Assembly: GCA_964016885.1 (NCBI GenBank)
Contig: OZ024742.1
Coordinates: 29,264,001 to 29,328,000 of the forward strand
Length of the DNA stretch: 64,000 nt
Direction: 5' to 3'
Origin: Eledone cirrhosa
Lineage: Eukaryota
The translations under genes and the position numbers were made by a program. The notes under the pieces were generated by a model that had not been told where the DNA came from, searched no databases, and saw only the letters and a program-made list of their open reading frames with translations. Below, piece by piece: positions 7,658-10,600 of the stretch (within the stretch, counting starts at the first letter, position 1; every line of letters begins with the position of its first letter).

Positions 7658-10600
7658 TATATATATATATATATATATATATATATATATATATATATAT
7701 ATATATATATATATATATATATATATATATATATGTATATATATATATATATGTTTATATATACACATATACATGTATATATATATATAAATATATATAT
7801 ATATATATATATATATATATATATATATATATATATATATATATATATATATATATGTATATGTATATATATATATACACACATATACATATATAAGTAT
7901 ATATATATATATGCATATAGGTTGAAAAAAAATGAAAACGAAATTTCATTTCTCACTCTTAGTATGGCACTTACTTAAATGTAAGTATGTATGTATACGT
8001 ACATACATATATGTATACAGACGTACAGTAGCATGCATATATATATATATATGTACGTGCATATAGGTATGTGTACCTGTATGTATATATATATATATAT
8101 ATATATATATATATATATATATATATATATATATATATATATATATATATATGCATGCTACTGTACGTCTGTATACATATATGTATGTACGTATACATAC
8201 ATACCTATATGCATATATATATATATATATATATATATATATATATATATGCATATACATATATAAGTATATATATATATGCATATATATATATATATAT
8301 ATATATACATATATATATATATATATATATATATATATATATATGTATATATATATATATATATATATATATATATACACATATACATATATGCATATAT
8401 ATTTATATATATATGCATATATATATATATATATATATATATATATATATATATGTATATATATATATATATATATATATATATATATATATATATACAT
8501 ATATATATATATATATATATATATATATATATATACATATACATATATAAGTATATATATATATGCATATATATATATATATATATATATATATATACAT
8601 ATATATATATATATATATATATATATATATATATATATATATATATGTATATATATATGTATATATATATATATATATACACACATATACATATATAAGT
8701 ATATATATATATATGCATATATATATATATATATATATATATATATATATATATATATACATATATATATATATATATATATATATATATATATATATAT
8801 ACACACACATATACATATATAAGTATATATATATGCATATATATATATATATATATATATATATATATATATATATATATATATATATATATATATATAT
8901 ATATATATATATATACACACATATACACACACACACACACACACACAGTTGAATAAAATGATGTCAAAAGAAATATATGTTTATAAATACACATATACAT
9001 GTATATATATATATAAATATATGTTTATATATACACATATACATGTATATATATATATAAATATATATATATATATATATATATATATATATATATATAT
9101 ATATATATATATATGTATATGTATATATATATATACACACATATACATATATAAGTATATATATATATATATATGCATATAGGTTGAAAACAAATGAAAA
9201 CGAAATTTCATTTCTCACTCTTAGTATGGCACTTACTTAAATGTAAGTATGTATGTATACGTACATACATATATGTATACAGACGTACAGTAGCATGCAT
9301 ATATATATATATATGTACGTGCATATAGGTATGTGTACCTGTATGTATATATATATATATATATATATATATATATATATATATATATATATATATATAT
9401 ATATGCATGCTACTGTACGTCTGTATACATATATGTATGTACGTATGTCAGGTCACCAGTTGGTGCTACTGGTAACATGTATCCCAGTACAACCTGTCTC
9501 ATGGTCGGGTCGTTGGCGACTAAACTGGCAACCCCACCAAGGTTTCTTGGTGAGGAGGGTGACTTTGGACATCCTGCAGGACTAAAAACAAAACCTGTCA
9601 AAGGGCAAGGGAGCTCTTAAGACTCAATAGCCATCCAAAATCACCGGGAGAGATGACCCCTTAGCCTTTGTCAAGGCAGAATTCTAGGAGAAGGAAAACT
9701 CTGATATAACACCTGCAACCCTGATGGTATCCAATGATGTTGACTTGTTCTTCTTTTTGGTAAATATCATCTTGGTTAAGAGAGTGGGACTGGCTTTGTG
9801 CAGTGCCTTTGCTCACTATAAAAGCTTCACAGCACAGGCATTGCTTTATATCTGGAGATCTCTCTGCACTTGTCATCACATGGTACCATGGGCCCTGCAC
9901 TGTGTGTCAATAATGGTCACAAGTGTAGTCTTTGTACCAGAGTTTTCAAGTCGCTGGCTGGACTAAAAAGTCACATTCGTTCAGCGCATCGGTAGGGGTT
10001 CTCCTACATGGATATAAAGTAGTGGCCGTACTCGAAAACGAGTTGGCAGCCACCATGTACGTATACATACATACCTATATGCATATATATATATATATAT
10101 ATATATATATATATATATATGTATATATATATATATATATATATATATATATATATATATATATGCATATACATATATAAGTATATATATATATATGCAT
10201 ATATATATATATATACATATATATATATATATATATATATATATATATATATATATATATATATATATATATATATGTATATATATATATATATATATAT
10301 ATATATATACACATATACATATATGCATATATATATATATATGCATATATATATATATATATATATATATATATATATATATATATATATATATATATAT
10401 ATATATATACATATATATATGTATATATATATATATATATATATACATATACATATATAAGTATATATATATATGCATATATATATATATATATATATAT
10501 ATATATATATATATATATATATATATATATGTATATATATATATATATATACACATATATACATATATAAGTATATATATATATATGCATATATATATAT

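Follow-up and report, generated by a model that had tools for sequence, protein, structure and literature searches.

A predicted subclass-1a-like exoribonuclease-resistant knot at the 5' end of an RTE-type retroposon family in Eledone cirrhosa

Within the 64,000-nt stretch of Eledone cirrhosa DNA analysed here (contig OZ024742.1, positions 29,264,001 to 29,328,000 of the forward strand; hereafter the window), the copy at 9447..10056 (+) is a non-autonomous, internally deleted, bipartite retroposon of RTE type. Comparative modelling suggests that the first 57 nt of this element probably fold into an exoribonuclease-resistant knot of subclass 1a type (xrRNA), which would set and shield the 5' end of the element's RNA. 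A sequence-only reading of the same DNA had proposed an undescribed structured RNA at this place, acting by self-cleavage or as a promoter or translation element. All the strings that it named were located, with copies starting at 9447 (+), 20703 (-) and 10 (-). The features discussed below are collected in Table 1.

Table 1. Positions in the window of the retroposon copies and of the predicted structural features of the 9447 copy (copy A)
Feature	Position	Strand	Description
Whole non-autonomous copy, subfamily A	9447..10056	+	5' UTR part (to ~9877) fused to parent 3' end, then (TGTA)/(TA) tail
Full-length copy, subfamily B (copy B)	20168..20703	-	Head architecture as in A
Subfamily A copy	46032..46626	+	5'-truncated at element position 18; knot incomplete
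Subfamily A copy	1..10	-	First 10 nt, continuing outside the window
Three nt upstream of G1	9444..9446	+	Carried with full-length copies; probable RNA 5' end, predicted exonuclease halt site (register break)
Subclass-1a-like xrRNA module, predicted	9447..9503	+	RF01415 alignment, pair counts, swap test, subfamily conservation, reciprocal model search
G1	9447	+	Predicted pair with junction C 9490 (PK1)
U2	9448	+	Predicted triple with A9468-U9488
P1	9449-9453/9492-9496	+	5 bp
P2	9454-9465	+	Variable
Single C	9466	+	Between P2 and P3
P3	9467-9472/9484-9489	+	A-U second pair
L3	9473-9483	+	
PK2 pseudoknot	9476-9479/9500-9503	+	4 bp
Second module, predicted H-type pseudoknot	9504..9533	+	Element positions 58-87; adjoins PK2 without overlap
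Second module, helices	9504-9507/9517-9520; 9512-9516/9525-9529	+	Stem; loop pairing downstream after a UAAA linker
Hairpin caccaag/cttggtg	9535..9552	+	Sequence and length vary freely in relatives; most single-sequence folds predict the hairpin
Hairpin agggtg/catcct	9556..9575	+	Missing from consensus fold

The 610-nt subfamily A element is composed of 431 nt of the 5' end and 181 nt of the 3' end of a full-length element, and we identified this parent in a 4.06-kb element (L387) with 97% identity over positions 286-717 and 94.5% over positions 4168-4348. The single, broken frame of L387 encodes an endonuclease, a reverse transcriptase and C2H2 fingers; two C2H2 zinc fingers, common to some relatives, end the parent element (L387:3832-4284). 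Relatives of the L387 protein combine endonuclease and reverse transcriptase in 1000-1200 aa, on contigs of 3-5 kb. These comparisons uphold the earlier assignment to a non-autonomous RTE-type family. The organisation expected of a bipartite LINE derivative, with both ends of an autonomous element and the ORF gone, was found for subfamily A with L387 and also for subfamily C with L185. The features of the RTE clade that we found are a single ORF with an AP endonuclease followed by a reverse transcriptase, a short element and a repeat tail, and the label “RTE-type” is based on this architecture and on a published UTR word. The word in question, a 23-nt RTE-like sequence (PMC5786205, excerpt), is matched at 16-19 of its 23 positions in 12 of 17 subfamily D copies.

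Three more subfamilies (B, C and D) and a full-length type (E) came from searches with other heads. Subfamily A is evidently young, since each of the 40 genome matches scored for the 164-nt head showed 100% identity. Seven heads were found in 600 kb of unselected sequence of the 3.0-Gb genome, corresponding by rough extrapolation to ~35,000 copies, that is, tens of thousands; the family is also present in DNA-type sequencing runs of several other organisms. The elements carry (TGTA)/(TA) tails and are inserted in such repeats, often inside the tail of an older copy, and among 93 copies with both ends we found no target-site duplication outside repeats. The copy at the window edge belongs to a near-complete family member that extends beyond the window (L061). 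The surroundings of the 9447 copy (8000-10800) are repeat-rich, with nested inverted blocks flanking the element. Directly before its tail, residues 10020-10056 are predicted to form a stem-loop that is likely the recognition site of the reverse transcriptase. A scan of the whole window against Rfam was dominated by microRNA matches on repeats (150 of the 348 matches listed), and a repeat finder run over the whole window gave nothing informative.

The fold of the head had been put forward as undescribed; once two pseudoknot contacts are added, its layout is that of a subclass 1a xrRNA. The characteristic features of this subclass are a three-way junction, a 5-bp P1, a conserved C between P2 and P3, a U-A-U triple, a PK1 of 1-2 bp and a PK2 of 2-7 bp (PMC8374639, PMC8571300, PMC7749634; excerpts). 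A ring of 15-16 nt around the 5' end and resistance to Xrn1 further mark the subclass. All of the sequence-level items are present in the element head: the U-A-U bases, the single C, the 5-bp P1, the bases of a G-C PK1 and a 4-bp PK2. The three-way junction postulated by the sequence-only reading was borne out by the RF01415 alignment, the pair counts and the consensus fold. A P1/P2/P3 junction with a 5-bp P1 and a 4-8-bp P3 is predicted, with two bases between helices; it is well supported in copy A and has weak ensemble support in copy B, where the junction helices reach a pair probability of only 0.10-0.17 in folding without pseudoknots. The earlier reading had missed the two pseudoknot contacts and the position of G1 and U2 outside P1, and its P2 is corrected here to 4 bp with a 4-nt loop. 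Its observation that pairing persists while the sequence changes between subfamilies holds, but cgctc and acttg occur as variants of individual copies within subfamily B, where the usual pairs are CACU/AGUG and CGGGU/ACCUG.

When the five subfamilies are compared, variation affects 3 of the 37 positions in the core but 53 of the 138 elsewhere in the head (Fisher p = 2.7e-4). The interior of P2 differs at 9 of 10 positions and keeps its 4-bp pairing. The free energy over 150 nt (z = -0.94 for copy A and -2.32 for copy B) gives weak support by itself, and it is from the comparison among subfamilies that we conclude selection on structure; together with the modal start described below, this comparison sustains the earlier proposal of a selected fold tied to the 5' end. 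The single C between P2 and P3 is invariant in the five subfamilies, as are the bases of the U-A-U triple, a contact predicted from bases that show no covariation. The first PK1 pair (G1-C44) is likewise invariant. A second PK1 pair is possible in subfamilies A-D, with T at position -1 in 176 of 190 copies, and lacks covariation: subfamily E has CU in the junction, yet T at -1 in 19 of 22 copies. PK2 is invariant within the 3.0-Gb genome. A 7-bp HDV-type P1 drawn from G1 was rejected as a pairing scheme, position 2 being U.U in most subfamilies.

Two of the features listed for subclass 1a differ in the element. The pairs 7-46 and 21-43 are U-A, whereas the junction-flanking pairs of mosquito-borne xrRNAs are reported to be C-G only (PMC13161572, excerpt), and the Rfam scores fall below the family cut-off. 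Because of these two features, and with resistance being a prediction, we do not file the element as a subclass 1a member, although it most likely works like one. The top RF01415 match, on 9442-9513, reached 26.1 bits (cut-off 54.5; E = 0.01 from a post hoc search of 201 nt) and forms every pair of the model; the best RF01415 score overall was 29.6 bits against the same cut-off. In the Rfam search copy B had no RF01415 match, and the general xrRNA family RF03547 matched neither copy A nor copy B. The Infernal/Rfam comparison proposed with the earlier reading agreed with it in returning no ribozyme and departed from it in returning this sub-threshold xrRNA match. Across the 3.0-Gb genome only three RF01415 matches at E<=10 were found (64 candidates scored), all of them family heads; their E values of 6.6-9 are at a level at which 7 of 14 control genomes also match, and for this reason only the coincidence with family heads counts.

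Searches in both directions linked the heads to flavivirus sequences. A sequence-light 1a descriptor, written with both the heads and the flavivirus sites in view, gave three matches in 664 kb, all heads, and none in three shuffles, and it recovered 7 of 10 flavivirus 3' UTR loci. The reciprocal model R1, built from retroelement heads only, matched all ten flavivirus loci at the pattern site (12-28 bits) and also seven second flavivirus copies outside the pattern selection, four of them exactly on curated RF01415 matches; its stray matches were one on a minus strand and one on a non-flavivirus contig. All ten R1 matches in 671 kb of the source genome were family heads. Eight metagenome RTE heads had no xrRNA match by Rfam.

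The motif pattern was also matched outside the source genome, 114 times in 111 metagenome loci, 13 times in viral contigs and 28 times in prokaryote genomes. P2 of at least 3 bp and P3 of at least 5 bp were formed in 84 of the metagenome matches, 9 of the viral and none of the prokaryote matches. The metagenome loci are presumably animal host DNA: 45 of their matches show RTE kinship outside the motif, and an RTE ORF lies downstream in nine, that is, 9 of the 37 well-formed matches with at least 1 kb downstream. Ten viral loci are flavivirus 3' UTRs according to Rfam. Pairs were counted in 20 heads, comprising 18 outside representatives and copies A and B, with two rows misaligned at a duplicated start; 95% of cells pair, and two-sided changes occur in seven pairs. 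These include all four pairs of PK2 (84.6% paired) and one of P3, but none of P1. Most of P1 and half of P3 were fixed by the pattern, which left the P2 interior and PK2 free, so that the conservation of P1 and P3 outside the source genome is partly by construction. In a swap test, the cognate pairing between loop and downstream strand averaged 4.72 bp versus 3.93 bp after swapping, a difference reached in 40 of 20000 permutations (82 of 20000 with Watson-Crick pairs only) of related sequences that are non-independent samples; PK2 is shorter than 4 bp in 3 of the 18 outside representatives. The weak folding z-scores and the near-identity of many copies would be compatible with chance pairing in a young repeat under no selection for structure. 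The swap test, the two-sided changes, the core conservation and the contrast between 84 well-formed metagenome matches and 0 of 28 in prokaryotes all oppose this explanation, which covariation in distant relatives largely refutes and to which we assign a negligible probability.

Some of the loci found by the pattern deserve separate mention. Three contigs (L264, L288 and L377) bear the motif with U-A as the first P3 pair; L264 carries two motif copies 336 nt apart, like tandem viral xrRNAs, and L377 has no Rfam match above cut-off. Possibly these contigs represent an RNA virus bridging the retroelement and flavivirus sets. Three further groups (L267/L287, L268/L322 and L297/L362) share upstream flanks and have a well-formed motif with PK2 paired; RTE kinship was not found in them, and other repeats or fixed loci may harbour the fold as well.

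A conserved head could alternatively serve as an internal promoter and/or as a site for the RTE protein or the ribosome, with the likeness to xrRNAs being incidental. In L1Tc the first 77 nt contain an internal promoter (PMC3383444, excerpt), the Rfam scores are sub-threshold, and a near-invariant core would suit a DNA or protein motif as well. We regard this alternative as distinctly unlikely, because the two-sided changes in P2 and PK2 indicate RNA structure and the reciprocal model matches fall on curated xrRNAs. Moreover, neither a TCA[GT]T[CT] initiator nor a B box is present in the five references (A-E), we found no tRNA-like head with A and B boxes, and the ARAGORN output was empty; with no initiator and no Pol III box pair in the head, the earlier suggestion of a promoter as likely function was not sustained.

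Because head-based searches favour full-length copies, we also picked copies by internal sequence to define the 5' end. Among 30 internally picked A copies, including the window copy, 10 start at G1, 2 within 4 nt of it, and 18 are scattered truncations. Among 30 endonuclease-picked loci of full-length type, including the query locus and read by eye from the alignment, the corresponding numbers are 19 at G1, 2 within 5 nt and 9 scattered. In neither 30-copy set did we find shared sequence further upstream of the modal start. The precise 5' end claimed by the earlier reading therefore holds in that G1 is the modal start, but not the sole one, and copies probably join the genome 3 nt before 9447. 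In the flanks purines and pyrimidines alternate, and a junction shows up there as a break in register. Among repeat-flanked full-length copies, 35 of 124 have such a break between -4 and -3, but only 1 of 43 truncated copies does (Fisher p = 1.6e-4); when one copy per locus is kept, the counts are 33 of 111 and 1 of 39. Junctions were counted by place, and 20-odd loci fetched twice or near-duplicate were dropped, as was the satellite locus L151. In full-length copies the break falls between -5 and -4 in 11 of 124 and at each of six other steps in 0-5; in truncated copies it sits at their own junction. The -4/-3 break occurred in 0 of 9 copies of the internally picked subset, was weaker in a second batch (8 of 38), and formed no -3 peak in subfamily E (2 of 10). 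A TTAT junction as general integration scar was rejected, as truncated copies lack it; the TTAT letters at another RTE copy (44200) are element sequence.

The bases at -3..-1 are identical in 135 of 190 full-length copies; they differ in subfamily E, where they are mostly TGT, and in another lineage, which has CTTT. In an unrelated host lineage, a family on metagenome contigs is inserted at unrelated sites with ordinary flanks; here the four bases at -4..-1 are common to 9 of 17 copies, which have little in common further upstream. Sequence comparison thus places the most likely start of the copied RNA 3-4 nt upstream of G1, and the -3 junction marks the end of the cDNA, not the origin of that end. 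Xrn1 is reported to halt 5-6 nt before P1 (PMC5760640, excerpt), or two positions upstream of PK1 (PMC13161572, excerpt), distances that translate to -3/-4 here. At the DNA level the junction peak lies at -3, with a minor one at -4. Two truncated A copies (L174 and L394) start exactly at element position 58, the first base of the second module; either a further stall site or microhomology to the flanking repeat could account for this.

A true xrRNA that is only protective, in an RNA whose 5' end comes from transcription start at -3 or from an endonuclease, has a small chance of being the correct explanation. All the structural evidence applies to it equally, the -3 junction cannot separate trimming from initiation, and one set of -3..-1 bases prevails in the full-length copies. 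However, these bases differ among subfamilies and lineages as an inherited flank would, the offset of the junction equals the published halt distance, and the head lacks an initiator or Pol III box pair. An undescribed self-cleaving ribozyme cutting ~3 nt upstream of G1 appears improbable. HDV-like or twister ribozymes do occupy this place in other RTE elements (PMC5786205, PMC8501958; excerpts), the twister variant of Perere-3 likewise uses flank bases, and P1, P3 and PK2 follow one another in a strand order similar to part of the HDV core. On the other side, Rfam returned no ribozyme at E<=10 on copy A or B, with twister, pistol, hatchet and hammerhead families all lacking a match, and no base upstream of G1 is conserved across lineages. 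An HDV-like descriptor (a double nested pseudoknot having P1.1, P2, a 3-bp P3 and the catalytic C) gave no match in references A, C, D or E and 15 in B, all of which start beyond the first 6 nt; short hammerhead, twister and pistol motifs were absent from the five references. Rfam, descriptors and ARAGORN accordingly agree with the earlier statement that neither HDV, twister nor tRNA could be fitted, and the first two leave self-cleavage as the likely function without backing. A permuted pistol or twister reading also failed.

Returning to the xrRNA that both sets and shields the end, we hypothesised the following sequence of events. The element would lack its own promoter and be transcribed within host or tandem read-through RNA. 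Once this RNA carried a 5' monophosphate, Xrn1 or nuclear Xrn2 would eat the leader and stall 5-6 nt before P1, so that G1 and about three donor-flank bases would remain. At the DNA level, full-length copies bring three flank bases to new sites and truncated copies do not. The endonuclease/reverse transcriptase of the parent, the partner identified above, would copy the RNA, as is established for RTE elements, into (TA)/(TATG) repeats, which frequently belong to the tail of a previously inserted copy. The knot would also stabilise the uncapped RNA, which may be why bipartite derivatives retain it. It would do the same job as the HDV-like and twister ribozymes of other RTE elements, R2 and L1Tc, with a host nuclease replacing catalysis. 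A stalling step in the nucleus is plausible, given that nuclear 5'-3' decay is impeded, and downstream RNA stabilised, when a flavivirus xrRNA is built into a human gene (PMC6938672, excerpt) and that R2 ribozyme folds are thought to give exonuclease resistance (PMC12222951, excerpt).

Downstream of the knot, the predicted second module consists of a 4-bp stem (94% paired, with a two-sided change in one pair) and a 5-bp loop helix, in which three pairs change on both sides; its outer three pairs are not kept. In shuffles, the two-sided pair count was reached in 60 of 500 and the covariation score in 0 of 500. The module bears a loose likeness to coremin/xrRNA-C (PMC6546385, PMC10520033; excerpts) in its short GUC-type stem followed by a UAAAC linker, but differs in its 9-nt loop, in the predicted canonical pairing downstream and in lacking the YG..AD loop consensus. 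When compared with the full coremin arrangement (hp1 with YG..AD loop, 10-nt spacer, hp2), only the stem and part of the spacer were found. Over positions 58-165, folding was better than in shuffles (z<-2) for only 7 of 20 sequences. Both downstream hairpins (Table 1) are plausible predictions, less well supported than the modules. A long-range helix 58-64/148-154 was discarded, being absent from the consensus fold, which predicts a helix near the head end instead.

A second young RTE-type family, unrelated to the 9447 element, is present in the window at 41178-44200 (-), where it is 5'-truncated, and in full-length copies elsewhere (L244-L262, L392). It has no match to model R1. All 19 internally picked loci start within ~2 nt of one place, 15 of them at the same G. 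Compared with the coremin motif given in PMC10520033 (excerpt), the head has the 3-bp stem and agrees at 9 of the 10 spacer bases; a hairpin follows. It is much closer to coremin than is the second module of the 9447 element, and its 8-nt loop is outside the YG..AD consensus. Coremin stops Xrn1 one base upstream of its stem (PMC10520033, excerpt). From its sequence, this head is a candidate second virus-type exonuclease block at an RTE start.

Other repeats in the window and the genome were also observed. An inverted pair at 21249-22632 / 24507-25890 (1.38 kb, 98% complementary) with RT-like and GIY-YIG-like frames is, we presume, Penelope-like. Positions ~14-62 of a D-type head make up 57-nt satellite arrays at L151 (G000:C12, near 6.816 and 7.007 Mb), and other head arrays with a spacing of ~107 nt are located on C26 and C15.

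The head most likely represents a fold already known from viruses, found in a new setting and with a newly predicted role. The correspondence with a described motif leaves its novelty intact, since the motif has been described from viruses and not from retrotransposon heads. Among the top-ranked open papers in the literature searches we found no report of a natural xrRNA in a retrotransposon, and PMC12397905 contained no passage on transposons. According to a 2021 review, xrRNAs were characterised only in viruses and their presence in eukaryotic genomes was posed as an open question (PMC8374639). A broader proposal, for and against which we see the balance as even, is that a wide group of animal RTE elements makes its 5' ends by xrRNAs and not by promoters or ribozymes. 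These would be the first functional xrRNAs of cellular genomes, homologous to or convergent with flavivirus 1a, and lineages in one genome would use different virus-type blocks (1a-type and coremin-type), implying module exchange with RNA viruses. If true, this would be a third route to a defined LINE 5' end beside internal promoters and ribozymes, would explain why bipartite RTE derivatives retain the extreme 5' end, and would raise the possibility of fold exchange between flaviviruses and RTE elements. Intronic or 3'-flanking copies could then impede nuclear 5'-3' decay of host RNA, and the heads would offer natural non-viral stabilising elements for RNA engineering. The candidate is 60 nt long, has relatives in other hosts and is amenable to a standard Xrn1 assay.

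Among known systems, the subclass 1a xrRNAs of mosquito-borne flaviviruses (RF01415, RF03547; PMC8374639, PMC8571300, PMC5760640, excerpts) resemble the element head in the three-way junction with 5-bp P1 and U-A-U bases, in a variable P2 closed by C-G with a single C between P2 and P3, and in a predicted G-C PK1, a PK2 of 4-6 bp and a probable 5' end 5-6 nt before P1. The head differs in residing at the 5' end of a genomic retrotransposon versus a viral 3' UTR, in having U-A versus C-G at two junction pairs, in scoring below the Rfam cut-offs, and in that its resistance is predicted from sequence. The 5' ribozymes of non-LTR elements, HDV-like in R2, L1Tc and some RTE elements and twister variants in Perere-3 (PMC6765202, PMC8501958, PMC5786205; excerpts), are, like the head, structured RNAs situated right at the 5' end of their elements, RTE-type ones included, and retained by internally deleted derivatives; they free the unit from read-through RNA, as the head would. 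Unlike them, the head has no catalytic consensus, and its end is proposed to be made by a host exonuclease, with about three flank bases left. The bipartite non-autonomous RTE elements of Kojima 2018 (PMC5786205, excerpt) match subfamily A in joining the 5' UTR and the 3' end of a single-ORF endonuclease/reverse-transcriptase element before a microsatellite tail, and the 5' devices described in that excerpt are ribozymes, not xrRNAs.
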